Source of the DNA: an uncultured bacterium
GTDB taxonomy: Bacteria; Patescibacteriota; Minisyncoccia; UBA6257; 2-01-FULL-56-20
Length of the DNA stretch: 64,000 nt
NCBI GenBank assembly: GCA_963844965.1
Contig: CAWJQC010000004.1
Location: forward strand, 41,609-105,608
Reading direction: 5' to 3'
Positions 1,464 through 46,367 of this stretch are shown here, in pieces. The notes under the pieces are model-generated. The model was given only the letters and a program-made list of their open reading frames with translations. It searched no databases and was not told where the DNA came from. Position 1 is the first letter of the stretch. Each line of letters opens with the position of its first letter. Made by a program: the position numbers and the translations under genes.

Positions 1464-1495
1464 AAAAACGCCCCGTTCATCGGGGTATTTTTGTT
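1464..1495. terminator. bidirectional intrinsic terminator
   Basis: aaaaaCGCCCCGttcatCGGGGtattttt: a GC stem flanked by an A-run and a T-run, lying between the convergent mgtC-like gene and rnpB. Confidence 0.7.
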
Positions 1496-1903
1496 GCTGG
1501 CAATCCGTAAGCCGGATTCTGTCGCGCCTGCCTGTCGGCAGACGATGCGATCATTTATCTGGGCCCTTGATTGCTCGCGGGCTCAAGCGGCACTTCCACC
1601 TCATCGGCGGACACGGCCTTGCACCCAGTAAGGATTTAGCCGTTTCATCTCCACTTTTTTATCCCTATGGCGGAGCTGGACCGACTAGCTTGGGATTGGG
1701 TCCGTCCGACTTTTTCAAATCGGACCGTTTCTGCTCGCACCTCTATTCTTACGAACGACGGCTGTTAGCCGCTACTATTTTATCCCTCCCCAGTTTTGCC
1801 AGTAATGTCACTGGCAAAACTGGGGAGGGATGGTGTCCGGACTTTCCTCCCTACATTTTCTAGAATTTTAAGAAAATGTAGGGCGATCGCCTAGATTGCC
1901 AGC
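1496..1903 (-). ncRNA. rnpB: RNase P RNA (bacterial type)
   Basis: The minus strand carries GGGAGGAAAGTCCGGACACC (CR-I) near the 5' end and ACAGAATCCGGCTTACGGATTGCCAGC (CR-V/P4 region) at the 3' end. The 5' GCTGGCAATC pairs with the 3' GATTGCCAGC to form P1. Confidence 0.9.
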
Positions 1904-6442: not shown

Positions 6443-7498
6443 CTAGTTCCCCATCTTCGGCCCGCTTACGTCGCCATTGTTATTATATCCAGACTTTTCC
6501 CACGTGCCTTTGTAATTAATATCATCGGACAACTCAATTTTGGTTATCCATTTTATCCATTTGTATCCCCATTTTTGTTCCGCAACAAGCTGAAACGGGA
6601 AGCCTTTTTCTGCCGGAATGACAACGTTATTCATTTTATAGGCCAAGAGAATATTATTATTTTCAATATAATCCAGGGGCAGTGAGGTGGTATAACCATC
6701 GCTCGCATAAAATATGACAACTTTTGCTTGTGCTTTAATACCGGCCGATTCCAAAAGGTCTTTGACCAAGACCCCTTCCCATAAAATTTTTGCAGTCCAG
6801 CCCTCGACACAATCAAGCTCCACAACCTTAGAATATTTCTGAAAATTTAGAACTTGATCGTAGGTATAACTTTTTGGAGTCTGGACCAAGCCAGAGATTT
6901 CCAATGAGTAATTATCAATGTCTATATATTGAGTTCCTTTAATCGCGTTATCCTGAATATCGGCAATTGATGATAATTTTTCTCCCTGGTACTCCTTAAC
7001 CTGACTATCTGTTAATTGTTTTGTTGCGTAATCAGACGATAATTTAATTCTGATAAAAGAAATGCTTGCGATTCCGGCCAGCACCAAAAAAATTATTAAA
7101 AACCAAATTTTGGTTCTCAAACCTAAAAATTTATTTTCAGGAGTTGCGTTGAGTGTTTTTTCGGAAACTTTAATTCGGCCCAAGACGATATTCATCAATG
7201 CCAAAACTACTATAATAATACCCGACCAATCATGTGCAAAATTTATCCAAAATAACGGCAAAGGCGCATAGCCAATTACATGATACAATTCCAAAAACTT
7301 AAAAACGCCCGTAATAACCAGTATTGGAACAAAAAATATCAAAACCAGTCGAACAATTTTTCTTAATGCAATCACGCTTTTATTATATCGTTTCCATCCG
7401 AAGTCAACAAAAGCGAAGAGCGTCAAAAAACCACCCCGTGTGCGGAGCGGCGGAAATTTACTCCAACGGGTGGACGGTGTTAGAATATAAATCGCCAA
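6443..7498 (-). CDS. membrane-anchored molybdopterin-dependent oxidoreductase (sulfite oxidase / MsrP-YedY-like domain)
   Basis: The C-terminal half reads LDCVEGWTAKILWEGVLVKDLL...FYASDGYTTSLPLDY...LLAYKMNN..IPAEKGFPFQLVAEQKWGYKWIKWITKIEL, typical of the Mo-cofactor oxidoreductase fold. The N-terminus is hydrophobic. The true start is uncertain. The gene is visibly AT-rich. Confidence 0.65.
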   Translation of the reverse strand: MAIYILTPSTRWSKFPPLRTRGGFLTLFAFVDFGWKRYNKSVIALRKIVRLVLIFFVPILVITGVFKFLELYHVIGYAPLPLFWINFAHDWSGIIIVVLALMNIVLGRIKVSEKTLNATPENKFLGLRTKIWFLIIFLVLAGIASISFIRIKLSSDYATKQLTDSQVKEYQGEKLSSIADIQDNAIKGTQYIDIDNYSLEISGLVQTPKSYTYDQVLNFQKYSKVVELDCVEGWTAKILWEGVLVKDLLESAGIKAQAKVVIFYASDGYTTSLPLDYIENNNILLAYKMNNVVIPAEKGFPFQLVAEQKWGYKWIKWITKIELSDDINYKGTWEKSGYNNNGDVSGPKMGN

Positions 7499-30274: not shown

Positions 30275-31087
30275 TTAATTATAAGTTTTGCTCGACCATT
30301 TTTTCTTATTGCGGGTCTTGTGCCCGCCGGTAACCTTACCCCACAACGTTTTTGGTTTTCTCGTGCCGCGCGGCTGTCTGCCCTCGCCGCCGCCGTAGGG
30401 ATGATCAACCGGATTCATGGCTGTGCCGCGGACGGTCGGCCTCACGCCAAGCCAGCGCGAGCGGCCGGCTTTTCCTATTGTAACCAAATTATGCTCGGGA
30501 TTGGAAAGTTGTCCGATGGAAGCGAAGGAGTTCCAGGAAACCCTTCGTATCTCGCCGGAGGACAACTTCAGGTCCGTATAGCCATCGGCGTTCGCGAGGA
30601 CCTCCACGTAAGAACCGGCGGAACGGGCCAGCTTCCCGCCCACGCCCGGCTTCAATTCTATATTATGTACTTGGTAGCCAACTGGAATATTCTTCAATCT
30701 TAACCTATTTCCGATTTTAAGAGGCGCGGTATCGGACGTCACGATGGTATCCCCGACCGCGAGCCCCTGAGCCGCGAGAACGTAGCGGCGCTCGCCATTG
30801 GCGTATAAAACCCTGGCGATGAATGTGGTTCTGTAAGGATCATATTCCAAAGTTTCAACCTTGGCCGGCATATCCGGGAATTCGCTCTGCACGAAATCTA
30901 CCATCCTGTACAGCTTTTTGTGACCGCCGCCCTGATGGCGCACCGTGATTCTTCCCTGCGAGTTCCTGCCCGCGTGGTCCTGAAGGCGCCTAAGCAGCGG
31001 CTTATACGGTTCTGTTTTTGTAAGCGCACCATAATCGGGTACCGTCATCTGCCTGCGTCCCGGAGTTGTTGGCTTGTAAGCTTTCAT
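30275..31087 (-). CDS. rplB: 50S ribosomal protein L2
   Basis: RNSQGRITVRHQGGGHKKLYR...RGTAMNPVDHPYGGGEGR. Confidence 0.95.
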   Translation of the reverse strand: MKAYKPTTPGRRQMTVPDYGALTKTEPYKPLLRRLQDHAGRNSQGRITVRHQGGGHKKLYRMVDFVQSEFPDMPAKVETLEYDPYRTTFIARVLYANGERRYVLAAQGLAVGDTIVTSDTAPLKIGNRLRLKNIPVGYQVHNIELKPGVGGKLARSAGSYVEVLANADGYTDLKLSSGEIRRVSWNSFASIGQLSNPEHNLVTIGKAGRSRWLGVRPTVRGTAMNPVDHPYGGGEGRQPRGTRKPKTLWGKVTGGHKTRNKKKWSSKTYN

Positions 31088-31094
31088 CGGAAAA

Positions 31095-31370
31095 TTATTG
31101 TATGTCTATTTTTTGTCCGGCCTTAAGCGTCACAATCGCTTTTTTGTATCCAGATTGTTTGCCGCGCAGGGCGCCGACGCGCTTATGCTTGGCCGGGCGA
31201 TTGACGATATTGACTGCGACCGCATCGGCTTTGTAAATTTCTTTCACCGCTTTTTTGATCTCCGGCTTGGTGGCGTCATTCCTCACGAGAAAAACGTATT
31301 TGCCGAACTTGGACAAGTCGGTCGCTCTCTCTGTCACCCACGGTTTTTTTATCAAAAATACGCTGCTCAT
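31095..31370 (-). CDS. rplW: 50S ribosomal protein L23
   Basis: 91 aa; KYVFLVRNDATKPEIKKAVKEIYKADAVAVNIVN...KKAIVTLKAGQKID. Confidence 0.92.
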   Translation of the reverse strand: MSSVFLIKKPWVTERATDLSKFGKYVFLVRNDATKPEIKKAVKEIYKADAVAVNIVNRPAKHKRVGALRGKQSGYKKAIVTLKAGQKIDIQ

Positions 31371-32011
31371 GATTTGTAACGTTTACCCATAATTTCAACG
31401 GCTTTTCTGTCCATGAAAATATTCTTATAGTTCAAAATGTCGTAGAGATTCAGCGACTCCGGAGGAACAGTTTTTGTCTTGACCAAATTCCGCGAGGCGC
31501 GCGCCAAATTTTTGTTTTCTTTGTTCGCGACAAGAAGTAGATCAAATTTTTTATCCTTCTTTTTCAAGTTCAAAACCGGCGCGAGCGCCGCGGCAAGAAC
31601 CTTGGTTTTCGGCCGCTCCACGTTCAAATCTTCAAAAATCCTCACGTCATTGTCTTTGAGTTTGCGCGAGAGCGCGCTCACGAGAGCCAGACGCTTCATT
31701 TTCTTGTTTATCTTCTGCGAATAATCGCGCAACTTGGAAGGTCCGTGCGCCTTGCCGCCGCCAACCCACAACGGCGAGCGGATAGAGCCATGCCTCGCGC
31801 GCCCCGTTCCCTTCTGCCGCCACGGCTTTCTGCCGCCGCCTCGGACTTCGGCGCGGGTCTTTGCGTGCGCCCACGGGCGTCTGGCGTTCGCAAGCTGGGC
31901 AACCAAAACCTGTTGCACAAGCTCCGGATTCCACTTCACGCCAAAAATCTTGTCGGGTAGTTCAATCTCGCCGACCACCTCGTTTTTTAAATTATAAACC
32001 GCGGCTTTCAT
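31367..32011 (-). CDS. rplD: 50S ribosomal protein L4
   Basis: RRPWAHAKTRAEVRGGGRKPWRQKGTGRARHGSIRSPLWVGGGKAHGP. Confidence 0.95.
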   Translation of the reverse strand: MKAAVYNLKNEVVGEIELPDKIFGVKWNPELVQQVLVAQLANARRPWAHAKTRAEVRGGGRKPWRQKGTGRARHGSIRSPLWVGGGKAHGPSKLRDYSQKINKKMKRLALVSALSRKLKDNDVRIFEDLNVERPKTKVLAAALAPVLNLKKKDKKFDLLLVANKENKNLARASRNLVKTKTVPPESLNLYDILNYKNIFMDRKAVEIMGKRYKS

Positions 32012-32012
32012 T

Positions 32013-32564
32013 CTATTTTCTATTTTCTATTTTCTGTACTTCCAAAATCCCTCCCCTCGCTCCGGGAACCGCTCCCTTTATAAAAAGCAATCCGTTCTCT
32101 TTATCAACGCCGGCGACCTTCAAATTTTTTACCGTCACGCGCTCGTCGCCCATGTGGCCGGCCATGCGGTGGCCCGGCGTAACCCGCTGGGGCGCGGTGC
32201 TGCCGATGGAACCGCCGGCGCGGAAACGGTTTTTCTGTCCGTGTGTTTTCGGTCCGCCGGCGAAACCATGGCGCTTGACGACACCAGCAAAGCCACGTCC
32301 CTTCATCGTGCCCGACACGCGCACCACATCACCTTCCTTGAAAGCATCAACCTCTATTGCGTCACCAACTTTAAATTTCTCGCTTTCGGTTCTGAATTCC
32401 CGCTTTTGCTTTCCGAGAGCGAGCTGAACGGCTTCATATCCGTCCCGTTCGTTAGTGCGAACAAAAGTTACCTTATTCGGCTGCGCGCGAAGCACCGTCA
32501 CGGGCACGACGGTTTTGTCCTTCCAAATCTGGGTCATCTTCAATTTTTTCGCCAGGATAAACAT
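32013..32564 (-). CDS. rplC: 50S ribosomal protein L3
   Basis: VTVLRAQPNKVTFVRTNERDGYEAVQL...SGTMKGRGFAGVVKRHGFAGGPKTHGQ. Confidence 0.95.
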   Translation of the reverse strand: MFILAKKLKMTQIWKDKTVVPVTVLRAQPNKVTFVRTNERDGYEAVQLALGKQKREFRTESEKFKVGDAIEVDAFKEGDVVRVSGTMKGRGFAGVVKRHGFAGGPKTHGQKNRFRAGGSIGSTAPQRVTPGHRMAGHMGDERVTVKNLKVAGVDKENGLLFIKGAVPGARGGILEVQKIENRK

Positions 32565-32570
32565 AACTTA

Positions 32571-32600
32571 ATAAAAATCCGCCCAAGCACACCCGGGCGG
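32571..32600 (-). promoter_or_regulatory. terminator-like hairpin plus U-run ~10 nt upstream of the rplC start (possible leader/attenuator)
   Basis: The minus strand reads CCGCCCgggtgtgcttGGGCGGATTTTTATTaagttATG. Confidence 0.45.
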
Positions 32601-32664
32601 TCCGGCTGTCCTTGTGAAAACGTTCTTAATTATTGTCCAGAACGTCCATTAAAGAGACAAGCTA

Positions 32665-32693
32665 ATACTACGCCGGAATGCCTGGAACGTCAA
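32665..32693 (-). promoter_or_regulatory. sigma70-like promoter for the rplC operon
   Basis: The minus strand reads TTGACG, a 17 nt spacer, then TAGTAT, about 100 nt upstream of the rplC ATG and just downstream of the island terminator. Confidence 0.5.
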
Positions 32694-32756
32694 TAGCACC
32701 CCCTCCACAAGCAAAATCGGCCTGATTTTGCCGCCTTGCCTTCTAAAATGTCGGTA

Positions 32757-32792
32757 AAATAAAAAGCCGGGCCGTTAGAACTTCAGCCCGGC
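32757..32792 (-). terminator. intrinsic terminator after the 367-aa island gene
   Basis: The minus strand reads GCCGGGCtgaagttctaacgGCCCGGCTTTTTATTTT. Confidence 0.7.
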
Positions 32793-32799
32793 AACTTGC

Positions 32800-33879
32800 T
32801 CACCGAAGAATGAAACGTCCCGGTTTGCTTGAGTAATCAGAGAAGAAATTCGCATACGGGAAACGCAGAACACCATAGCCGTGCGTCACGCTTTTTGAGA
32901 CGAACGCGGGCCTTTCTCGTTTCCATCGCTCATACTCTTCTTCCTTGAACAGCACGACGCGTAGCGGATTGCGCGATTCATCAATAACGGCAGGAAGAGC
33001 AAACTCCCAAAACGCCATGTCGTCCTGTTCGTCGCGCGTGAAGAGCGAACGAACGTCGGCGATATCGCCTTCGGCCCAGAACGCGAATCCGCCGCAGGAA
33101 GTCAAATATATTCTCTCCAACTCTTTCGGCCGAATACCCTCCAACTTCAACAAATCAAATCTGTTACAAACAGCCAAAGGCTTTAACCGAGAATAGTAAA
33201 AAAGTTGTCGCGCTTCCTTTCTTACACATTTGGCAAATATGTCCTCGATGTAGGCGGCGAGGAACGGGAGCTCGTGACTAATGTCGGCATCAAAACAGTT
33301 GACCGAATGTTCAACCGGCAGGGCGTATTTCCAAATGCTCGGAATCGTTTCTTGGAGAATGGCAAGTGTGTCCGGCACCGACCCGCCGATAGTACTGAGA
33401 GAATTGAGGCCGGGAACCGTTTCGCCGTGTATGAAGTGCCGGTGGCAAACCGACACATACCGGAGATATATACCCATGCCGTCGCTGTGCATGAATTCCA
33501 GAAGACGCAGGGTTTTTTCCGGCGCGAACATAACGAGCACGCATTTCTTCGTTTTCTCAATCGGCACCGTTTCGCCGGGCAGTACGTGCCCTTTATCCCC
33601 GAGCGCGCGGAGAAGTTCTTCGGCGGCTTCATCGCAACCGTCACGCCGGAGCTGGGCATAAAAATCGGCGAGAACGCGCGCATCGCTGAAAAGTCCGTTA
33701 AGTTCGTTCAAAAACGCGGTTGGGGTGTCGGCTTTATCGGCGATATTTGCCAACGTTTCCGTCATAAATCCGAGTTTGCCGCGCCTTCGCCCAAACACTT
33801 TATGGCCGGCGAGTTTCTGAAATAACCGGTCAAATTGCTGTCCACGAAGAACCGTCTTTCCTTCAGGCACCTGTTTCAT
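32800..33879 (-). CDS. hypothetical cytoplasmic protein (359 aa), first gene of the rpsJ-rplC island counted from the rplC side
   Basis: An intact long ORF. GGAGG lies 6 nt before the ATG (MKQVPEGKTVL...). No signal peptide or TM segment, and no family I recognise. Confidence 0.55.
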   Translation of the reverse strand: MKQVPEGKTVLRGQQFDRLFQKLAGHKVFGRRRGKLGFMTETLANIADKADTPTAFLNELNGLFSDARVLADFYAQLRRDGCDEAAEELLRALGDKGHVLPGETVPIEKTKKCVLVMFAPEKTLRLLEFMHSDGMGIYLRYVSVCHRHFIHGETVPGLNSLSTIGGSVPDTLAILQETIPSIWKYALPVEHSVNCFDADISHELPFLAAYIEDIFAKCVRKEARQLFYYSRLKPLAVCNRFDLLKLEGIRPKELERIYLTSCGGFAFWAEGDIADVRSLFTRDEQDDMAFWEFALPAVIDESRNPLRVVLFKEEEYERWKRERPAFVSKSVTHGYGVLRFPYANFFSDYSSKPGRFILR

Positions 33880-34082
33880 GGGAACCTCCTTGTTCCGAAA
33901 CACATCTGAAGCAACACTTCCTGGGAAATGCCTATTCGTCTGCCTTTCAGCAGACCGTCTCCTGGGAAACGTGGATTAGCGCATTTTCAAAGAACATGCA
34001 CCGAACAAATCATAAGCAATGCGGACTTCTAAGTCAAGCGCATCGTAGATGCGGCCGACACCGAAAATCTTCCGTTCCCAAT

Positions 34083-35000
34083 TTACTGTGCCACCATAAG
34101 CGTCCTCCTTATTGAGTCAAACTGATTAAGCAATGCCGTGCGGTCAAATTCATGGACAACGCCAGGCGGATAGTTATAAATATCCGTGGAGTGTATGAGA
34201 TAGCGCACCGCGAGGCAGGGATTTGTGCCGGGAACGGCCCAGACTTGTTCTTCGTAAAAATTGCCCGCCGCCCCTTCGGTCGTCGTAGCAACGGAATACT
34301 CCGCGCCGCCGTCGGTCACATTCTCTGCGACCAGATTTTGCCGGTCAAGAAAAGGAAGCGCGCTGCAATCCTTTATGTTCGGAGTTTCTTCAACCGACAC
34401 GCCCGTGTCGTAGTGTGAAAGATTGGTACCGGTCGCCATCGCGGCGGGAATAACAAATTTGACGCCGCTGATATCCTTGCCCGGGCCGAGTTCCTGATAC
34501 TTATACGAAGCGTCAACGGAGTAGCCCACGGGATAACGTATGGAAAAACCCGCCGTTCCGCTTGCGTAAGTTTGCGGCAAACCGCCCGAGTCTGGCGCAA
34601 GCACAATACAGCCAACGTAATTTTTCTCTTCGTTATTCTCAAAAACGAGCGCGCCGTTGCCCTTGCCCCAGAAAACGAACGACTCGTCACTGTTGGCGTA
34701 ACGTATTCCGTCCGCCGATATTGTTTGCGGCAAAGTGAATCTGCGCCCGTCGCTTAAAACCAAGGCAACGCTCCCACCGGGAACCGGCGGCTCGCCGGGC
34801 TTTACGGGCGGCGGAGTTCCCTTGTAAAAACTTGCGTCAATCGTCTTTCCGCCATTGCACAGATAGGTAACTTCATTGATAGGCGCGGGCGCCGCGGACT
34901 TTTCCGGCGCGCCGCGGCGGGCGTACCAAAACCACACGCCAAAAAACACCAAGATGACCGCGAGCACCGCAAACAATATTTTAATATTCCTAAATTCCAT
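34083..35000 (-). CDS. membrane-anchored protein with an N-terminal MliC-like (lysozyme-inhibitor fold) domain and an unknown C-terminal domain
   Basis: The start MEFRNIKILFAVLAVILVFFGVWFW forms a TM helix. It is followed by TYLCNGGKTIDASFYKG...VALVLSDGRRFTLPQTISADGIRYANSDESFVFWGKGNGALVFEN, which matches the MliC pattern (C..G......v.l..dg....L.q..SasG.rY......w.kG). Confidence 0.5.
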   Translation of the reverse strand: MEFRNIKILFAVLAVILVFFGVWFWYARRGAPEKSAAPAPINEVTYLCNGGKTIDASFYKGTPPPVKPGEPPVPGGSVALVLSDGRRFTLPQTISADGIRYANSDESFVFWGKGNGALVFENNEEKNYVGCIVLAPDSGGLPQTYASGTAGFSIRYPVGYSVDASYKYQELGPGKDISGVKFVIPAAMATGTNLSHYDTGVSVEETPNIKDCSALPFLDRQNLVAENVTDGGAEYSVATTTEGAAGNFYEEQVWAVPGTNPCLAVRYLIHSTDIYNYPPGVVHEFDRTALLNQFDSIRRTLMVAQ

Positions 35001-35098
35001 GATTTTAGTTTTTAGAAACGCCCGATCCGATAAGCACAGGTGGCACTCTGTGGAGATAGCGAGAGGCACCAGTTGCAACTTCGCCAAACCAACCGCCG

Positions 35099-35410
35099 TC
35101 AGCTGTAAGCCAAAATGATAAACACAATCGCGACGATTACGACGAGGAACGTAATGGTTGCCGCAACAAGATTTATCGCTTCCCTTTTTTTGCCGTTAAA
35201 GTACCAAAGAATCGGCCGGCCGAAGATAACAATGCCCATTACAGCCGCGGAAATCACAAAAACAAGAAGAAACGCCGAGACGACCAGCACCCCGCCCCCG
35301 GGACCGAAAACGTGGTTCGCGTTTGAAATCAAAAGAGCGACGAGCCCCACGTAGGCCGCGGCGGCAAGCGCGTTAAGCAAGCCGTAGCCGATTATTCGTT
35401 TTGTTTTCAT
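35099..35410 (-). CDS. small integral membrane protein (3 predicted TM helices)
   Basis: 103 aa, almost entirely hydrophobic helices. Confidence 0.5.
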   Translation of the reverse strand: MKTKRIIGYGLLNALAAAAYVGLVALLISNANHVFGPGGGVLVVSAFLLVFVISAAVMGIVIFGRPILWYFNGKKREAINLVAATITFLVVIVAIVFIILAYS

Positions 35411-35422
35411 TGTATAGAAATA

Positions 35423-36814
35423 TTACTGCTGGCATGCCTGGCCCGTCAGCCACGGTCCACTCGTGGCGTTGGGATCGTATGGCACGAGCGGCACTACGCA
35501 CGACCAGGAAAGGCCAGTGGATTTGAGCACGATTTTGCTATCGCTTCGGTCCGTTATTACGCTACGCAGTCCGATGGTAATTGTCGGGTCAACGCCGGAA
35601 ATGCCCATGCGGTGCACCCCCAATATTTCAATCGGGAGCATTCTCTGGGTGGTTGGTCCTAATGGGAAGGAAAACGGAACGTTAATGTTCTCTCCGCTGT
35701 GCGTGAAGGGAATAGATGGGTCAGCCGCCAGATTTTCCAGGTGATAATCGGTTGACGGATCATCAGCTACGCGCAAAACCAGCGGCGAATCGGCGACATT
35801 CAAAGCCGTGTAAGAAATATCAACGTTTAGTCCGGTAATCGTAATCTGGTTGGAATCTATATTGTTGAAAACAAGACCACCATTGTCCGTACTTTCCTGA
35901 AGCACGGTGCTCATGGCCGACGGCGAAGTGACGATCAGTTGGCCGGGGTCGGTCGTAAAGGAAAAATTTTTGGACTGAACCCGCTGGTCGTTTCCGGAAG
36001 TCTGAGCCAAACCGATGGCACAAGCGTATGAAGTTCTCACATCGAACATCGGATTTTGGTCGGTATCGTCGGAAGACGGGATATTCGGCGGCGGATTGCA
36101 GGAGAACGAAACGAAAAAACGCGGCACCGAACCGCTGCCGCCGATGGAAGTTTCGTCCAAACCCCATATTACACTGCTTTTTGTGCCTGCGAACGTGGTA
36201 AATTTTGCTTCGTATGGGCCGTCAAACCGTTCGTTCAAAGAAAGCGTGGTGGCGTCCAAAAACGTCCGCGCCGTAATTACCGCCGGGACGGAAGCGGCGG
36301 CTGTTGTCGGGGTCGTAGCGGATTTTGCCTGCGCTCCGGCCTTTTTACTTGTAGTTTTCCCACCGGACTGGGTGGTCGCGGCGGCCGTCGTGGCGGTCGT
36401 TGTGGAAAACGGCACATCCACGCTTGGCAATAGTCCCGCCACAATCTCCGTCTGTGCATCCAAACTCGCGACGCTTGAGGTGGCAACGCTTGAAGTAGCC
36501 GTGGAAGTTGAGAACGCAATAACACTTTGCATCATGGCAATCTCTTTCGGGACGCCTACTGCCATGCCCAGGCGTGCCTGCATGCCCATAACTTCAATCG
36601 TCTGTTTATAGGAAACAATTTCCGTCAAAGTTTTCGCCGCGAAAACTCCTCCGAAGAGGATTGCCGCGAGCCCGACAAGAAAAGGAACTCTCGTGCTGAA
36701 CAACTTCAAGATTTTTCCGGAGATATTTCCGCCGCCCAAAAAAATGGCCTTGAAGCCGCCGGGTCTGGCGGGCTTTTCACGGCGCACAATATCTTGTACG
36801 CGCCTGTTATTCAT
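35423..36814 (-). CDS. hypothetical secreted/anchored protein with a Thr/Ser/Ala-rich linker
   Basis: 463 aa. It has an N-terminal TM helix (VPFLVGLAAILFGGVFAA), low-complexity SSVATSSVAS..TTTATTAAATTQ, then a beta-rich C-terminal region. Confidence 0.5.
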   Translation of the reverse strand: MNNRRVQDIVRREKPARPGGFKAIFLGGGNISGKILKLFSTRVPFLVGLAAILFGGVFAAKTLTEIVSYKQTIEVMGMQARLGMAVGVPKEIAMMQSVIAFSTSTATSSVATSSVASLDAQTEIVAGLLPSVDVPFSTTTATTAAATTQSGGKTTSKKAGAQAKSATTPTTAAASVPAVITARTFLDATTLSLNERFDGPYEAKFTTFAGTKSSVIWGLDETSIGGSGSVPRFFVSFSCNPPPNIPSSDDTDQNPMFDVRTSYACAIGLAQTSGNDQRVQSKNFSFTTDPGQLIVTSPSAMSTVLQESTDNGGLVFNNIDSNQITITGLNVDISYTALNVADSPLVLRVADDPSTDYHLENLAADPSIPFTHSGENINVPFSFPLGPTTQRMLPIEILGVHRMGISGVDPTITIGLRSVITDRSDSKIVLKSTGLSWSCVVPLVPYDPNATSGPWLTGQACQQ

Positions 36815-37023
36815 TTGACGTATTGTTATATATTACCTCAGGACGCGTGGGGATTCAAACGTAGGCAAAATCGCAGTTTTGTTGCGGCAGGGCAAATCAC
36901 CCGGAGCGCTGAAGGATTAAAAAACAAAGCCGCAACCACGACTGTTCACTTTTTATGAACAATCATTTTATCGCTTGTTAAAAATTGAAACTGCCGACCG
37001 TGGATACAAAAATCTTTCAAAAG

Positions 37024-37064
37024 CCCGAAAAGAAAACACCCCGAAAACGAATTGGCTTTCGGGG
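37024..37064 (-). terminator. intrinsic terminator
   Basis: The minus strand reads CCCCGAAAgccaattcgTTTTCGGGGTGTTTTCTTTT. Confidence 0.65.
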
Positions 37065-37109
37065 CGACTTGTTAGAAAAAAACAGGAGTCAGGATTCTAT
37101 TCTCTGGTT

Positions 37110-37554
37110 TCAATTGAGGCCCGTTGCGGCAAGAAGTGTGCGGCGAATCACCGAATCGTGTCCCATCTCATTGTATGTGGCCGCCTCTATACGCCTCTCC
37201 AAAACAGCAGGAAGCCCAAGTATTTCTTTCTTGACCTCCCGTTCGGCAGAGCTCGCCACACCTTCCGTAATCATCGCGTATACCGCAGTCAACGGATAGT
37301 AGTCATTTTCCGCGGTGATGATGACACCGAGCGGCGTCAGCTTCCATCGGTGGGGTCTTTGCGCAGATACTCAAGAATACGCTGTAGTCGTAGATATCGC
37401 GCCCCAACAGTGCGCCGAAGAACAGCAACAAAACACCCTGAATTCCTACGACCACGTGATGACCTTGTATTTGATCTTTTGAAAAAAGAGCGAAAGCGGT
37501 GCATATTCCACCAAACACCAGCAGCACGACAAGCGATGGCTTAGCGCCCTTCAT
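37110..37554 (-). CDS. hypothetical membrane protein, probably one gene split by a frameshift near 37290-37330
   Basis: The 83-aa ORF (2 TM helices) ends where a second frame stays open (..KLTPLGVIITAENDYYPLTAVYAMITEGVASSAEREVKK..) and runs on to 37110. Confidence 0.35.
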
Positions 37555-37826
37555 ATACCCCCCCTTCCTCTTTTTTATCTTTGGCCTATCCAGCTGGCCT
37601 CAACCTAACACAGCGAAAGTTATTAGTCAAATGCGGCGGCTTTTTATAACTTGCGCGCTGATCACGGCAAAAATCTGCCGCCGGCCGGGAATGCGGGGGT
37701 TTAAACGAGGTCCAGCTGGTCCTCGGCCACAGGGTTTTAGAAAACCAATTCAAAACTGCCCTTTCCTGCGCTTCGCCGAAGGCTTCGGCAAGGCGAGCGG
37801 GCGGTGGTGAAAAAAATTACCTAGTT

Positions 37827-38174
37827 CTATTTGCCGTCGGCGCTGCTGGCCGGAAACTCGGAAGACGCGTCTCCGTCGTTCATCCATTGCCAAATTTCGG
37901 CTCGGCGCTTTTCGGCGCCGGGAAACACGTCATCGGGTATGGCAATACGCCGCAATTCTTCTTCGGTCAAGCTGCTGAGGTTAACCGACGAGGGGTCTTT
38001 GCCTAAAAGAGATTTGAGCGTTTTAAGGCTCGCTTTTATCCGTTTCGGGGCGAGAGCGTCCTTATTCCACAACTCTGAATCTTTTCTAATTGCGTCCAAA
38101 TTTTCGTGCGCCAGGGCGATCCTGTCGTTCCTGGAGAGTTCGTTCCCGCCAATCTTATCTGCAGGTTCTGGCAT
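37827..38174 (-). CDS. hypothetical protein
   Basis: A 115 aa ORF directly downstream of the rpsJ terminator. No family recognised. Confidence 0.4.
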   Translation of the reverse strand: MPEPADKIGGNELSRNDRIALAHENLDAIRKDSELWNKDALAPKRIKASLKTLKSLLGKDPSSVNLSSLTEEELRRIAIPDDVFPGAEKRRAEIWQWMNDGDASSEFPASSADGK

Positions 38175-38232
38175 AAATTTATATTACAACAATTTAATTT
38201 CTAAGTCCAAGCCCTGAATTAACAGAGAAATT

Positions 38233-38255
38233 CAAAACCGCCTTTTCGGGCGGCT
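38233..38255 (-). terminator. intrinsic terminator after rpsJ
   Basis: The minus strand reads GCCGCCCGAAAAGGCGGTTTTGAATTT, preceded by GCGCGGAACTACGCGGAATTACGCAGAAAC word repeats. Confidence 0.65.
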
Positions 38256-38287
38256 TTGTTTCTGCGTAATTCCGCGTAGTTCCGCGC

Positions 38288-38618
38288 TTAGACCATTTTG
38301 ATTTCCACATCTACGCCAGCCGGTAAATTCAGATTGCTCAGCGATTCCACGATTTTCTGACTGGGATTCAGTATTTCCACGAGGCGCTTGTGGACGCGGA
38401 GCTCAAACTGCTCGCGCGAGTCCTTGTGGACGAATGTTGAACGATTTACGGTGTAGCGCTTAATCTCGGTCGGCAGCGGAATCGGCCCTACGATGCGCGC
38501 GTCCTGCCTCTCGGCGGCTTCAATAATTTGCCGCGCCGAATTATCAATCAGCTTGTGATCTGTATGACTTGATTCTCAGCCTGATTTTTTGCGGAAGGTC
38601 CGCTACTTTTTTGGCCAT
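38288..38618 (-). CDS. rpsJ: 30S ribosomal protein S10, interrupted by a +1 base near 38558-38565
   Basis: [19 protein letters not shown] then a stop. Deleting one base in tcatacAgatcac restores [63 protein letters not shown]...VDVEIKMV*. Confidence 0.88.
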
Positions 38619-38627
38619 TATTTTTTC

Positions 38628-38948
38628 CTATTGAGGGAATTCATCCGGATGTTCGTCCTCGTATTTTTCAAGAAGTCCGTTGTACAGATTTATATCCCTT
38701 TCGAGTTTGGAGCAGGATTCAAGCTCCCAGTGCCCGATATCCCCTTGACGGGACGCCGCTGGCTCGCCACTTCCGCAAATTGGCTCTCTAATCGCTTAAC
38801 CAGGGCTTTCAGTTTTTCGTAGTCCTCGTGATTTTGAGGCGGATTTTTCAACCAGCTCCTGTTGTCAAAGTTAGTTTCTTTTTCCTCACCAAGCTAATTT
38901 TGGATTCACTGCGATTTTTTTCACCCATATTATTTCAGTATCTTAGTC
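38628..38948 (-). CDS. hypothetical ~106 aa protein inserted between tuf and rpsJ (two compensating frameshifts)
   Basis: Three consecutive frame pieces read [17 protein letters not shown].. / [44 protein letters not shown] / [35 protein letters not shown]. The start lies 1 nt after the tuf stop. Confidence 0.35.
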
Positions 38949-38949
38949 A

Positions 38950-40132
38950 CCGCTCCTGCGCCGACCGTCTTGCCGCCTTCGCGGATGGCAAAACGCTGTT
39001 TTTCTTCAAGCGCGACCGGGAAATGAGTTTCACGGTGAGTTTAACGGTGTCGCCCGGCATGACCATTTCCATGCCTGCCGGCAAGGGTCACTTCGCCCGT
39101 AACATCGGTCGTCCTGATATAGAACTGCGGCTTGTAGCCGTTGAAGAACGGCGAGTGGCGGCCGCCTTCCTCTTTTGAAAGCACGTAAACCTCGCGCTCG
39201 AATTCCGTGTGCGGCGTGACGCTGCCCGGCTTCGCGACAACCTGCCCGCGCTCCACGTCTTCTTTCTTCAGGCCGCGGAGCAGAACGCCGACGTTGTCGC
39301 CCGCCATGCCTTCGTCCAAGAGTCTTATTGAACATTTCAATGCCCGTGACGACGGTCTTCTGCCGTCGGCCTGCAGGCCGACGATCTCCACTTCTTCGTT
39401 CACTTTCACCTTGCCGCGCTCCACGCGGCCGGTCACGACCGTGCCGCGTCCTTCAATCGAGAAGATGTCTTCGATCGGCATAAGGAACGGCTTGTCGAAG
39501 TCGCGGACCGGATCGGGAATGAATGTCATCCACCGCTTTGATAAGGTCCAAGATCGGTTTCGCGTCCGGGTCGTCGGCGATTTCGCGGCCAACGCTTTCA
39601 AAGCCGAACCGCGGATGATCGGAGTCGTGTCGCCCGGGAATTCGTATTTCTTCAAAAGCTCGCGGACTTCGGACTCAACGAGATCAATGAGTTCCGGATC
39701 GTCCACCTGATCGCACTTATTAAGAAACACGACGATGGTCGGCACGCCGACCTGGCGGGCAAGCAAAATGTGCTCGCGCGTCTGCGGCATCGGGCCGTCG
39801 GTCGCGGCGACGACCAAAATCGCGCCGTCCATCTGCGCGGCGCCCGTGATCATGTTCTTGATATAGTCGGCGTGTCCCGGCGCGTCAATGTGCGCGTAGT
39901 GGCGCTTCTCGGATTCGTACTCCGAATGGTGCAGGGCGATCGTGATGCCGCGCGCCTTTTCCTCCGGAGCGTTGTCAATTTGGTCCACTCTCTCTTCTTT
40001 CTTCGTCAGACCCTTCAAATGCAAAACGTGCATAATCGCGGCGGTCAGGGTCGTCTTGCCGTGGTCAACGTGGCCGATCGTGCCGATGTTCATGTGCGGC
40101 TTGGCCCGGTAGAATTTTTCTTTTTCAGCCAT
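38950..40132 (-). CDS. tuf: elongation factor Tu, with four apparent single-base indels
   Basis: The N-terminus is canonical ([53 protein letters not shown]). A compensating pair near 39515-39527 and 39585-39600 scrambles [21 protein letters not shown]. Two more, near 39075-39085 and 39015-39020, break the C-terminus (..[20 protein letters not shown] / [29 protein letters not shown]). Confidence 0.88.
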
Positions 40133-40256: not shown

Positions 40257-40286
40257 ATTATATACCATTCCCCCAACTGCTGTCAA
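40257..40286 (-). promoter_or_regulatory. near-consensus sigma70 promoter upstream of tuf
   Basis: The minus strand reads TTGACA, an 18 nt spacer, then TATAAT, about 125 nt upstream of the tuf ATG. Confidence 0.6.
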
Positions 40287-40492: not shown

Positions 40493-41296
40493 TCATTTCC
40501 CTAGAGCGGAAAACGCCTCGTTGCCGGGATACTTTCTATGAAGGTAATCGTGGATATTAGCTTTGTCATCTGCGGTATATTGGCAGGCGTTTTTCTTGTC
40601 CGTGATTATCTTCAAAATCACGAACCAAACGTCGTCGGCGTACATACCGCCGTCCAGAGCCACCGATTCGAATATTAATTCCCGGCCGCGATAGTCGTTG
40701 TTCGGAATGCCGAACAGTGTTGTCACCACGGGATGCGACGACGCCCTATAGTTCGTAAGGCCGAGAAGGAATTTCGCGCCACGGTACTTTGAGGCGGAAG
40801 CGACGGCAACGGCGGACTGCAAGGTGTTTTTTGCCGCCCACCACGAGCCGCAGCCATACAACAGAACTGCCTTGGTATATAGAAGATTCGCCTCTACATA
40901 CTGATAAAAATCAATCTGCTTGCCGTTTCCTATTTTCTTATCAGCCTTGTTGATGCCCACATCAAGCAGCTTGAAAAAATCCGCGCGCGGGCCGTCCTCC
41001 AATTTAGGCGCGTCCTTTTTTTGTTCGTGCCGAAGCCGGAAAAGCCAGCTCAAAGATAGCCGCAGTTCACCGACGGGATCGTCCGGCTCCATTTCCGCGT
41101 ATTTTCTGAACTTGGCGTCGGCGCAGTTATAATCGCTGTTGTAAAAACAATTCAGGCCCGCCTCAAGCACAGCACGGCTCTCGGGCCTCATCTCACGGTC
41201 CGAGATAGAATCCGCAGAAAAAACCGGGGCAGCCGAACCCGAGAAGAGACACACCGACATAAAAAAGATGAGCATCCTCGTTCTCTTCGCGCCCAT
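40493..41296 (-). CDS. hypothetical secreted protein inserted between fusA and tuf
   Basis: 267 aa with signal peptide MLIFFMSVCLFSGSAAPVFSA. It has its own terminator. No family recognised. Confidence 0.5.
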   Translation of the reverse strand: MGAKRTRMLIFFMSVCLFSGSAAPVFSADSISDREMRPESRAVLEAGLNCFYNSDYNCADAKFRKYAEMEPDDPVGELRLSLSWLFRLRHEQKKDAPKLEDGPRADFFKLLDVGINKADKKIGNGKQIDFYQYVEANLLYTKAVLLYGCGSWWAAKNTLQSAVAVASASKYRGAKFLLGLTNYRASSHPVVTTLFGIPNNDYRGRELIFESVALDGGMYADDVWFVILKIITDKKNACQYTADDKANIHDYLHRKYPGNEAFSALGK

Positions 41297-41436: not shown

Positions 41437-43541
41437 TTACCGTTTTTTGCCTTCGATAATCAACTGCGCAATGTTCTGCGGCACTGGCTCATAATGGTCA
41501 AATTCCATCGTGAACGCTCCCCTGCCTTGCGTCATGGAACGCAACTCGGTCGCGTAGCCGAACATTTCCGCGAGCGGAACTTTGGCGTCAATCACTTTCA
41601 CGTTGGGCCGGTCGGAAATTTCCTCAATCCTGCCGCGCTTGGAGTTCAAGTTGCCGCTCACCTCGCCCAAAAATTCTATCGGGATGATAACCTGAAGCTT
41701 CATTATCGGCTCCAATATGACCGGCTTCGCGCGCTTCGCCGCTTCCTGCAGGGCGATGGAGCCAGCAATTTTGAAAGCCGCCTCCGACGAGTCAACTTCA
41801 TGGAAAGAGCCGTCATAGAGCGAAACTTCAAGGTCGGTCATCGGGTAGTGGGCAACGACCCCCTTACTCAATGCTTCCACCACACCTTTTTCCACCGCCG
41901 GGATGAATTCGTTCGGAATGATCCCTCCCTGATATCGTCTATGAAAACAAATCCCTTGCCGCGCTCCAAGGACTTCACGCGCAGCCAGACATGTCCGTAT
42001 TGTCCGCGGCCGCCGGATTGCCTGATATATTTGCCTTCCGCCTCCGCTTCGCCCATAATCGTTTCTTTATAGGCAACCTGCGGCCGCCCCACCGAACCCT
42101 CAACACCGAACTCCCGCTTCATCCTGTCAACAATAATTTCCAGGTGCAACTCGCCCATGCCAGAAATAATCGTCTCGCCAGTTTCCAGGTCGCCCGCCAC
42201 GCGGAAAGTCGGGTCTTCTTCCGCCAAGCGGTGCAGGGCAATGCTCATTTTTTCCTGGTCGGCTTTCGTCTTCGGCTCAATGCGAATGCCGATCACCGGC
42301 TCGGGGAATATGATCTTCTCAAGCACTATCGGCGCGTCGGGACTGCAAAGCGTGTCGCCGGTCGTCGTATTCTTCAAACCGACGATCGCCGCGATATCTC
42401 CGGCATGCACTTCCTCCATTTCTTCGCGGTGGTTGGCGTGCATCCGCACCACGCGGCCGACACGTTCCTGCTGGTCCTTCTTGGAATTCAAAACGTACGT
42501 GCCGCGCTTCAAAACGCCGGAATAATTCCGGAAATAGGTTAAAGTGCCGACGTACGGGTCTGTCGCAACCTTGAAAGCCAGCGCCGAGAACGGCTCTTCG
42601 TCCTTGGGGTGCCGCACGATATCGGCGCCGCTCTTCGGGTCAATGCCCTTAACCGGAGGAAGGTCCGTCGGCGCGGGCAAATATTCCACAACCGAGTCAA
42701 GCATAAATTGCACGCCTTTGTTTTTCAGGGCCGAACCGCAAAGCACCGGCACAATTTTGTTGGCAATAACGGCTTTGCGCAAAACGCGGCGCAAATCTTC
42801 AATGTCAAGCTCAGTACCATCCAAATACTTGGTCATCAAGGCATCGTCATTGTCCACAATGCGTTCCACAAGTTCATGCCGCGCCTTCTTCACGTGCACT
42901 TTCATATTTTCCGGCATCGGAATTTCTGTAATCTTTTCGCCATGTTCACCCTCCGAGCCGTACGCCTTTTCGGTTAAGAGGTCTATCATTCCCACGAATT
43001 CACCCTCAAGGCCGATGTTCAACTGCAAAGGCAGTGCGTTCGGCGTGAGCCGTTCTTTGATTGACTGCAAACTTTTTTCAAAGCTCGCACCCAAGCGGTC
43101 AAGTTTGTTAATAAAGCAAATCCGCGGCACGTGGTACTCATCGGCATAGCGCCAGTTCGTTTCCGACTGCGGCTCAACACCTGCGACGCCATCAAAGACG
43201 ACAACCGCGCCGTCCAAAACGCGGAGCGAACGCTTCACCTCCACCGTAAAGTCAATGTGCCCCGGCGTGTCAATCAAATTTATCATATGCTCAAATTTTT
43301 TGTCGCCCTTGCGGTAAGTCGGAATCCAGAACGCCGTCGTTGCGGCGGAAGTAATCGTAATTCCCCTCTCACGTTCCTGCTCCATCCAATCCATCACCGT
43401 GTCGCCCGTGTGCACCTCGCCGATTTTGTGACTGACGCCCGTATAAAAAAGCACCCGTTCGCTCACGGTGGTTTTGCCGGCATCTATATGGGCGATGATG
43501 CCGATGTTACGGACCTTCTCGACAGGATACATTCTAGGCAT
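41437..43541 (-). CDS. fusA: elongation factor G, split by one frameshift near 41920-41933
   Basis: [35 protein letters not shown]. At ..FIDDIR the frame slips; adding one G in atcaGGGaGGGatc restores [30 protein letters not shown], which joins the two track ORFs. Confidence 0.9.
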
Positions 43542-46221: not shown

Positions 46222-46294
46222 GTCCCTGTAGCTCAACGGATAGAGCGTGTGGCTTCGAACCACAAGGTTGCAGGTTCAAATCCTGCCAGGGACG
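46222..46294 (+). tRNA. tRNA-Arg (anticodon TCG)
   Basis: GTCCCTGTAGCTCAACGGATAGAGCGTGTGGCTTCGAACCACAAGGTTGCAGGTTCAAATCCTGCCAGGGACG, with loop CTTCGAA. It is bracketed by the perfect inverted repeat CCCTCCCACCTTTG / CAAAGGTGGGAGGG. Confidence 0.9.
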
Positions 46295-46321
46295 CAAAGG
46301 TGGGAGGGTGAAGATATCATA

Positions 46322-46367
46322 TGTGGCTTCGAACCACAGGTTCCAGGTTCGAGTCCTGGCGAGGGCA
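46322..46367 (+). pseudogene. 3' fragment of a different tRNA-Arg(TCG) (anticodon arm to acceptor 3' strand)
   Basis: TGTGGCTTCGAACCACA is identical to the anticodon arm of the neighbouring gene. It is followed by a different T-arm (CCAGGTTCGAGTCCTGG) and acceptor strand (CGAGGGC). There is no 5' acceptor or D-arm. Confidence 0.7.

Follow-up and report, generated by a model that had tools for sequence, protein, structure and literature searches.

In Salmonella the genes bfd, bfr and hopD lie between the str and S10 ribosomal operons, and multigene insertions occur at the operon boundaries of this supercluster in Gammaproteobacteria, where the insertable space was argued to run from the last stop codon of one operon to the promoter of the next (PMC6735719). 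In glaucophyte plastids rps12-rps7-tufA-rps10 and rpl3-rpl23-rpl2... make up two clusters (PMC6330054), and in archaea uS10 is always encoded apart from uL3-uL4-uL23 (PMC10833476). The present work deals with the 5.7-kb interval that separates rpsJ, the gene for ribosomal protein S10, from rplC, the gene for L3, in a 64,000-nucleotide stretch of DNA (hereafter the window; positions 41,609 to 105,608 of contig CAWJQC010000004.1, GenBank assembly GCA_963844965.1) from an uncultured bacterium of the Patescibacteriota (Minisyncoccia; UBA6257; 2-01-FULL-56-20). The same tuf-rps10 arrangement as in the plastids is reportedly present in Spirulina, where Sanangelantoni and Tiboni are said to have described it in 1993, and chromosomal integration hotspots flanked by core genes were reportedly the subject of work by Oliveira et al. 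in Nat Commun in 2017.

The interval is probably a gene-turnover slot, lineage-wide in Paceibacteria, at an operon boundary that has been relocated, and filled in this genome by native, functionally unrelated genes; a rough probability of 0.75 is given to this reading. It draws directly on the architecture of the region, the variability of the slot, the conserved terminator, promoter and leader, the native composition of the DNA and the lack of co-occurrence of the cargo genes. No paper describing a split between rpsJ and rplC in Paceibacteria was found in limited searches of the literature.

Like the Salmonella insertion, the interval holds a few non-ribosomal genes without mobility functions at a boundary limited by a terminator and the next promoter. 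It differs in that the boundary lies one gene further, after rpsJ, that the content, of up to ~6 kb, changes in nearly every relative, and that in some relatives the slot is occupied by an insertion sequence (IS) element, or by a reverse transcriptase accompanied by an Avd-like accessory protein. With the plastid and archaeal tuf-rps10 unit it shares the linkage of S10 to an elongation-factor gene and an L3 gene heading a separate cluster, but in bacteria of the Candidate Phyla Radiation (CPR) the two units mostly are still neighbours rather than relocated (on the same strand and 0.1–6 kb apart in 50 of ~65 loci), and fusA is often not beside tuf. The feature in common with integration hotspots is a single core-gene interval occupied by many accessory families across related genomes; here, however, ribosomal protein genes form the flanks, within the gene cluster that is conserved most strongly in bacteria, and most of the cargo is devoid of mobility genes. 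The elements are known and their combination is new: a boundary shifted by one gene, both units side by side and a fast turnover between them.

Layout of the interval and its variation among relatives

Six open reading frames (ORFs) without ribosomal function, named A115, B, C463, D103, E and F359 (C, D and F for short; Table 1), lie between rpsJ and rplC in the window, as a preliminary description made from the sequence alone had stated. All features of the interval and both flanking ribosomal genes are on the minus strand. rpsJ is located directly 3' of tuf, and the 423-nt gap between the two contains no minus-strand terminator-like or promoter-like site; the terminator comes only after rpsJ, which is the layout of a tuf-rpsJ unit. 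The canonical S10 operon, with rpsJ abutting rplC and neither terminator nor promoter between them, is not present in the window, whose junctions from L3 to S17 all measure at most 74 bp. With the terminator assigned to rpsJ, and promoter plus leader (32565–32693) to rplC, the variable segment is shorter than 32565–38287 and extends from about 32694 to 38232 (~5.5 kb).

Relatives were collected by a scan for L3 over one genome per species, from which the best 80 loci were retained (top match 73% identical), and S10 and L3 were located in them by tblastn. Among them, the CPR records go under names such as Paceibacterota, Parcubacteria, Liptonbacteria and Wolfebacteria, and Chloroflexota and other outgroups appear towards the end of the list. 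The rpsJ-rplC spacer exceeded 400 bp in 27 of 50 CPR loci of this similarity-selected sample (range 488–5,933 bp, with L003 counted on the strength of a short S10 match) and was at most 243 bp in all 13 non-CPR loci. Nine further CPR loci had no rpsJ within 5–10 kb upstream of rplC. When proteins from the closest relative were used to measure the 18 junctions from tuf to rpsE, kilobase-scale variable gaps were confined to the S10-L3 junction and, occasionally, to tuf-S10 (1.0–2.5 kb in L010, L019 and L026), and everything downstream of rplC was compact.

The filled spacers had little in common. All-against-all BLASTP of their ORFs disclosed almost no shared families, each Pfam family was present in one ORF alone of the 60 scanned, and among the compared loci no spacer ORF of a relative was related to the six proteins of the window; the cargo differed among these loci, and the gene set of the window did not prove to be conserved at this position across the phylum. 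The contents included a HisG protein (L004), an rve-type (IS481-like) transposase (also L004, 7218–8234), a reverse transcriptase (RVT_1; L052, 6935–8350), a bAvd-like protein, DUF2283 and PAP2 proteins (L003), a PemK-family toxin representing toxin-antitoxin genes, a Q_salvage protein of queuosine salvage (L049), a methyltransferase (L019), a Peptidase_M15 and a LiaF-like membrane protein (LiaF-TM; both L010) and an EamA protein (L059). The reverse transcriptase and the bAvd-like protein suggest a diversity-generating retroelement (DGR), and the transposase and the reverse transcriptase found in the slot directly attest its use by mobile elements.

Variation was also seen at closer range. Three loci of ~88% nucleotide identity (L018, L019 and L010) differ by block indels, situated in the tuf-rpsJ spacer and directly 5' of the rplC leader region. 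In the closest available relative, L084 (JBFOMW010004488.1; L3 81% identical), homologues of C (60% identical) and, directly after it, D (71%) are found immediately upstream of rplC, with no E or F. A single interval flanked by core genes therefore holds many unrelated families across relatives, as in a hotspot, and its content is present in some related genomes and absent from others, as in an island.

Borders of the interval and the rplC leader

The terminator that the preliminary description had placed after rpsJ (at 38233–38255) was recovered, as were the two or more internal terminators it had announced, one after B and one after F359 (Table 1). A terminator-like hairpin follows rpsJ in 33 of 50 CPR loci, and that of L002 is nearly identical to the one in the window.

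At the other border, the TTGACG-17-TAGTAT site upstream of rplC is weak when taken alone, with 9 of 12 matches and nine such sites in the region versus 5.8 ± 2.1 expected. In nine of the ten leader-bearing loci the hexamers are identical to these and equally far from the leader, and in all ten, the window included, the end of the promoter lies 6–7 nt 5' of the first leader helix. A strict pattern (TTGACN, 16–18 nt, TANNNT, within 300 nt upstream of rplC) was met in 46 of 65 CPR loci versus 0.036 expected per 300 nt, often with an extended -10 box, TGCTATAAT. The promoter is present even where rpsJ and rplC adjoin; in L009 the entire spacer of ~200 nt is made up of promoter and leader, and the -35 hexamer falls within the last rpsJ codons. 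The promoter had been reported earlier as a fresh one; its sequence and position stand, and its freshness does not, since both the promoter and the leader RNA are conserved, at a constant distance from each other. Judged by this conservation, it is real and old (ancestral), not newly made. A second candidate, TTGGAC-18-TAATAT as the promoter of A115, was dropped because its match to the -35 consensus was too poor.

The leader consists of an outer helix P1 (32652–32660 paired with 32606–32613), a hairpin P2 (32639–32647 paired with 32618–32626) whose sequence varies while its pairing is kept, a conserved single-stranded CACAAGG, and a GC-rich hairpin of terminator or attenuator type (32579–32600) with a U-run that ends 15 nt before the ATG of rplC. 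The leader of the window folded by itself adopts a like structure, with a minimum free energy of -31.8 kcal/mol and a z-score of -3.15. In the alignment of ten loci 92% of the cells are paired, versus 44–60% with slid partners; ten pairs show compensatory changes, and none of 500 shuffles matched the observed values. A conserved structure with compensatory changes in the 5' untranslated region of a ribosomal operon is what characterises a ribosomal-protein leader. Neither the leader nor the interval had an Rfam match at gathering or permissive thresholds. An attempt to extend the model to other loci failed: the covariance model matched solely just 5' of rplC in the ten seed loci, apart from one weak match after rpsJ in L002. 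With the U-run ending 15 nt from the ATG there is no space for a further promoter, and the best interpretation of the hairpin is therefore an attenuator, not the terminator of an upstream gene.

In E. coli the S10 operon's leader contains an L4-controlled attenuator (Zengel and Lindahl, per PMC3616713). The leader of the window resembles it as a structured 5' leader with an intrinsic-terminator hairpin just before the first cistron of an L4-encoding operon, and differs from it in preceding rplC rather than rpsJ, in matching no Rfam sequence or structure and in being found in 10 loci. By this analogy the hairpin may serve as a feedback attenuator, and its ligand might be L4 or another ribosomal protein. 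Across the lineage, rplC probably heads its own operon, which is probably feedback-regulated.

Two further types of sequence were noticed upstream of rplC and downstream of the conserved promoter, both recognised by sequence only. The second leader type reads GAACTYCCGG-loop-CCGG followed by a U-run, with a variable hairpin before it, and the third reads ACTGGATTYCC...hairpin...GGRACGATCAAGA and lies ~13 nt before the ATG. The loci concerned are L084 (2500–2594), L004, L017, L013, L027, L020, L025 and L028, and L006, L010, L011, L014, L015, L018, L019 and L020.

From these elements the following course may be proposed. In Paceibacteria the boundary between the str and S10 operons would fall after rpsJ and not before it; tuf and rpsJ would be one unit, running from the perfect promoter upstream of tuf to the terminator after rpsJ, and rplC would head the next one, with a sigma-70 promoter, a structured leader of ~95 nt and a terminator hairpin. 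Since the first unit closes at its terminator and the second has a promoter of its own, the stretch between them would be ordinary inter-operon DNA. Genes could be gained and lost there without polar effects on the synthesis of ribosomal proteins, which would turn the stretch into a slot of rapid turnover, and the 5.5 kb of the window would be one filling, in which A115, B, the C-D-E envelope genes and F359, with its cytoplasmic product, are distributed over several small transcription units, drawn here as predicted from the sequence. Recombination anchored in the strongly conserved flanks would drive the turnover, and mobile elements would insert occasionally. A wider proposal is that the junction is, throughout Paceibacteria, a gene-capture slot with fixed borders at which undescribed leaders autoregulate L3-L4-L23-L2... 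by attenuation; this is put forward tentatively, with the odds somewhat against it.

Table 1. Position of genes and predicted signals in and around the rpsJ-rplC interval of the window
Feature	Position	Strand	Basis and remarks
Perfect promoter TTGACA-18-TATAAT upstream of tuf	40257–40286	-	promoter scan
rpsJ (ribosomal protein S10)	38290–38617	-	sequence reading; tblastn; frame broken by a 1-nt insertion
Predicted intrinsic terminator of rpsJ, would close the tuf-rpsJ unit	38233–38258	-	terminator scan; fold -24.8 kcal/mol, z-score -4.2
A115, soluble protein of 115 aa	37827–38174	-	ORF list
B, protein of ~148 aa with two transmembrane segments	37110–37554	-	+1 frameshift giving pieces 37303–37554 and 37110–37292
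Predicted strong intrinsic terminator after B	37037–37066	-	12-bp stem, then UUUUCUUUUC; fold z-score -3.2
C463, membrane-anchored surface protein	35423–36814	-	alignment of homologues and AlphaFold2 model
D103, small membrane protein with three hydrophobic (transmembrane) spans	35099–35410	-	ORF list; starts 12 nt past the C463 stop
E, 305 aa from ATG, transmembrane anchor and MliC domain	34083–35000	-	Pfam PF09864
Promoter-like site before F359, TTGACT-17-TATGAT	34009–34037	-	scan, 10 of 12 matches; from the window sequence alone, no comparative support
F359, cytoplasmic protein of an unannotated family	32800–33879	-	profile search; blank in Pfam and NCBIfam
Terminator-like hairpin after F359	32756–32792	-	9-bp GC-rich stem, -18.5 kcal/mol, then UUUUUAUUUU
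Predicted promoter of the rplC operon, TTGACG-17-TAGTAT	32665–32693	-	scan and comparative conservation
Structured 5' leader of rplC	32565–32660	-	folding; covariation in ten loci
rplC (L3), first gene of the rplC-rplD-rplW-rplB... operon	32013–32564	-	ORF list; homology

Proteins of the interval and competing explanations

When all proteins of the interval were compared with Pfam, NCBIfam, PADLOC and PHROGs, the MliC match of E was the only significant one. Two weak PHROGs matches were obtained, with E values of 0.011 and 0.073; the former belongs to A115, which otherwise gave nothing significant in the four collections and had no tblastn match in any compared locus. The start of B at 37554 is preceded by a Shine-Dalgarno sequence of good quality. 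None of the searches assigned a function to A115, B or D103. Four of the six ORF products have transmembrane (TM) segments, and the envelope-rich content reported at the outset is thereby borne out, as are the three TM spans of D103.

C463 belongs to a family of ~30 homologues (41–60% identity) without a Pfam domain common to all of them. According to their alignment, the N-terminus is a short tail followed by a TM helix, and a variable linker rich in Ser, Thr, Pro and Ala leads to a conserved domain of ~280 aa in which four cysteines are invariant. In the AlphaFold2 model, residues 177–443 form two beta-sandwich domains at a predicted local distance difference test score (pLDDT) of 80–95, residues 46–62 form a helix, and the Ser/Thr/Ala-rich linker is disordered; a Foldseek search of the PDB returned generic tandem Ig-like matches alone, at a TM-score below 0.25. 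The protein had been taken for a Thr/Ser-rich secreted one; the Ser/Thr-rich linker is there, and the N-terminus acts in the model as a membrane anchor rather than a cleaved signal. C463 is most likely a surface-exposed binding or scaffold protein.

E has a TM helix at its N-terminus, an MliC domain, and ~170 conserved C-terminal residues that make up a domain without a family; its description as an MliC-like membrane protein was correct. It belongs to Pfam family PF09864 at 38.6 bits (cutoff 22, E = 1e-9) and its alignment with YdhA of E. coli (PDB 2F09) covers both conserved MliC motifs. The motifs by which the MliC/PliC family contacts lysozyme are an SxSGxxY loop and an xKGxxA strand; in E, ISADGIRY corresponds to ISASGARY of YdhA and FWGKGNGA to FWSKGDEA, with retention of the lysine and an aspartate in place of one serine. 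Compared with MliC/PliC inhibitors such as YdhA, the shared parts are the domain, above threshold, and an alignment that spans the two motifs, and the differences are the altered ISASGARY motif, the N-terminal TM anchor and the additional C-terminal domain. Paceibacterota records contain more than 1,163 homologues at 55–67% identity under the name 'MliC family protein', and those listed carry PF09864; E is therefore a conserved gene of the lineage. The Paceibacteria that carry the family are not known to possess an outer membrane. E would most likely be an envelope protein that may shield peptidoglycan from lysozyme-type enzymes.

F359, in line with its description as a protein without a recognisable family, had no match in Pfam or NCBIfam, nor did any of 50 members of its family have one in Pfam. 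A word-indexed search gave one homologue, 28% identical, and a profile search of 1.84 billion representatives gave 270 clusters, 236 of them at E <= 1e-10. The model of F359 is of good quality by its scores (pLDDT 83, predicted TM-score 0.78), and neither a profile sequence search of the PDB nor fold searches of PDB and viral structures gave a match; the family was not found in IMG/VR scans. Its relatives occur in five unrelated contexts, some of them short; a tyrosine recombinase and a LysM-CHAP hydrolase are the neighbours of the nearest homologue. Profile and structure searches thus disclosed the extent of the F359 family and the beta-sandwiches of C463, and assigned no known function or fold. 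F359 and A115 are most likely independent cytoplasmic proteins.

The strongest competitor is the proposal of the preliminary description that the six genes make up a single cell-surface or host-interaction module not described before, situated for strong expression in a highly transcribed neighbourhood. It accords with the TM segments of four products, the surface exposure and tandem beta-sandwich domains of C463, and the MliC domain of E; moreover C, D and E share one orientation, are separated by 12 and 98 nt with no convincing terminator between them, and are plausibly co-transcribed, and the C-D adjacency is retained in L084. However, terminators after rpsJ, B and F359 and a promoter-like site for F359 point to several transcription units, and genes of one module would be expected to co-occur or adjoin elsewhere, which they do not. 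The partner genes are missing from 31 other C contexts (three genomes and 28 metagenome loci), from the 80 rplC loci and from the five F contexts, with C-D in L084 as the sole exception; in two complete relatives and the 28 metagenome loci the C homologue stands alone amid unrelated neighbours. E, found lineage-wide, is near rplC in one of the 80 relatives (L021) and at another position there, and F359 has its relatives in unrelated contexts. Nor is the spacer cargo of relatives enriched in membrane proteins (19 of 49 ORFs versus 29 of 91 control ORFs). A six-gene module is accordingly unlikely, and that part of the earlier proposal was not upheld.

Still less probable is the integration, beside rpsJ, of a recently acquired island, or of a mobile element or prophage that survives as a remnant. 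The site does carry the transposase, the reverse transcriptase, the bAvd-like protein and the toxin-antitoxin genes in relatives, and the nearest F359 homologue has a recombinase as its neighbour. In addition, 24 nt after A115 (37747–37770) are 83% identical to the rpsJ terminator region 38229–38252 (…GGCAGTTTTGAATT versus …GGCGGTTTTGAATT), a similarity that was not found convincing and that could be a relic of duplication at the insertion of A115, or chance. The cargo of the window, for its part, has no integrase or transposase by Pfam and nothing significant in PHROGs or PADLOC, no tRNA is nearby, and flanking direct repeats do not exceed chance size. The DNA is also indistinguishable from its surroundings: the tetranucleotide distance of the interval falls at the 47th percentile of windows of the same size, GC is 51.5% versus 50.1% for the whole window, and GC at third codon positions is 0.58–0.61, as in neighbouring genes, so that the deviant base composition of an island is not seen. 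The closest homologues of C, D and E come from the same lineage, and the F359 family is found neither in IMG/VR nor among viral folds. The initial view of an accessory island splitting the operon thus holds for content that is non-ribosomal, variable between genomes and bounded by terminator and promoter; it does not hold for a split that is common in the lineage and shows neither island composition nor mobility genes.

The quality of the assembly must be considered as well. Conserved coding sequence of the window contains about one indel per 2 kb, which indicates a noisy, unpolished and probably long-read assembly, and single-base frameshifts occur in the essential genes rpsJ (38562), fusA (~41895–41958), tuf (39041–39100 and other spots), rplP (~28497) and rplN (~27400). 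The frame of rpsJ is readable only after deletion of one extra A near 38562, a defect that the preliminary description had missed, and tblastn with S10 gave two high-scoring segments, in frames -3 and -1, that meet at 38560–38562; the repaired protein is 70–92% identical to S10 of relatives. The possibility that rpsJ is a pseudogene was dropped, since several essential genes of the window carry the same kind of frameshift, and at this error rate the frameshift of B is probably an assembly artefact too. Despite the low base-level quality, misassembly of the interval is unlikely, and a chimeric join as the cause of the rpsJ/rplC separation can be given hardly any weight, because an independent Logan contig (L001, run ERR10755942) matches window positions 30769–34587 at 99.97% and reproduces E-F-rplC-rplD, C-D lies directly upstream of rplC in L084, base composition is uniform across both junctions, and the same kind of split recurs in dozens of independent assemblies.

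Some points weigh against the turnover slot. The value of 27 in 50 is a prevalence in the sample and not a rate for the lineage, because the 80 loci were picked as best L3 matches and are neither random nor phylogenetically balanced. The modelled leader is confined to 10 examined loci, the promoters, the terminators and the attenuator role are predictions from sequence, and the join between rpsJ and A115 is covered by no second assembly. A local functional link among C, D and E is also conceivable, these genes being closely spaced and all encoding envelope proteins.

Neighbouring observations and significance

Some observations outside the interval may be recorded. The tuf-rpsJ spacer contains a 53-aa ORF (38690–38851, minus strand), whose status as a gene is uncertain. 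Between fusA and tuf the window encodes a 267-aa protein (40493–41296, minus strand) with a typical signal peptide and no family match, and a 24%-identical homologue occupies the same position in L017. In many relatives no fusA lies within 10 kb of tuf, and the fusA-tuf junction is therefore also open in the lineage. In L084 a dCMP/cytidine deaminase gene (6816–7220) interrupts the ribosomal cluster, compact elsewhere, between rpsC and rplP, where the gap is 482 bp versus 74 bp in the window. A truncated tRNA-like match (46307–46359, plus strand; 30.2 bits, model positions 9–63) directly follows an intact tRNA-Arg (46222–46294) and may be an integration scar or a degenerate duplicate. The class A RNase P RNA (1493–1902, minus strand) scores 100.2 bits versus a gathering score of 100, from which either a divergent or reduced RNA or indel damage in the assembly may be supposed.

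A heme-copper oxidase cluster (COX1, COX3, COX4_pro and COX_ARM) with UbiA was detected in a Paceibacteria-like genome, on the contig of L020 (L086, 4051–8719; L087, 931–5599). CPR bacteria are mostly described as fermentative, and such a cluster is unusual for them. One respiratory Parcubacterium appears to have been reported (PMC5220378).

The interval itself does not reveal a new host-interaction system, and its cargo is ordinary apart from the uncharacterised families of C and F359. As by-products, the analysis gave a candidate new ribosomal-protein leader RNA, the F359 family (~270 clusters, no known fold) and the lineage-specific surface protein family of C. The slot, its conserved promoter and the candidate rplC leader RNA merit a short comparative study.

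Genome binning and phylogenomics assume a near-invariant order of ribosomal genes, and a single junction that is routinely open and changing shows where this assumption fails. For the evolution of operons, the locus shows how a boundary can move, with a terminator on one side and an independent promoter and leader on the other making the site tolerant to insertion. If the wider proposal of a gene-capture slot with autoregulatory leaders is true, the rplC leaders would have evolved independently into a functional counterpart of the S10 leader of E. coli, positioned one gene further downstream; the slot would be a marker of gene flux at strain level, involving DGR-type genes, IS elements, toxin-antitoxin pairs and surface proteins, in an uncultivated phylum, and would offer a naturally tolerated insertion site for genetic tools.

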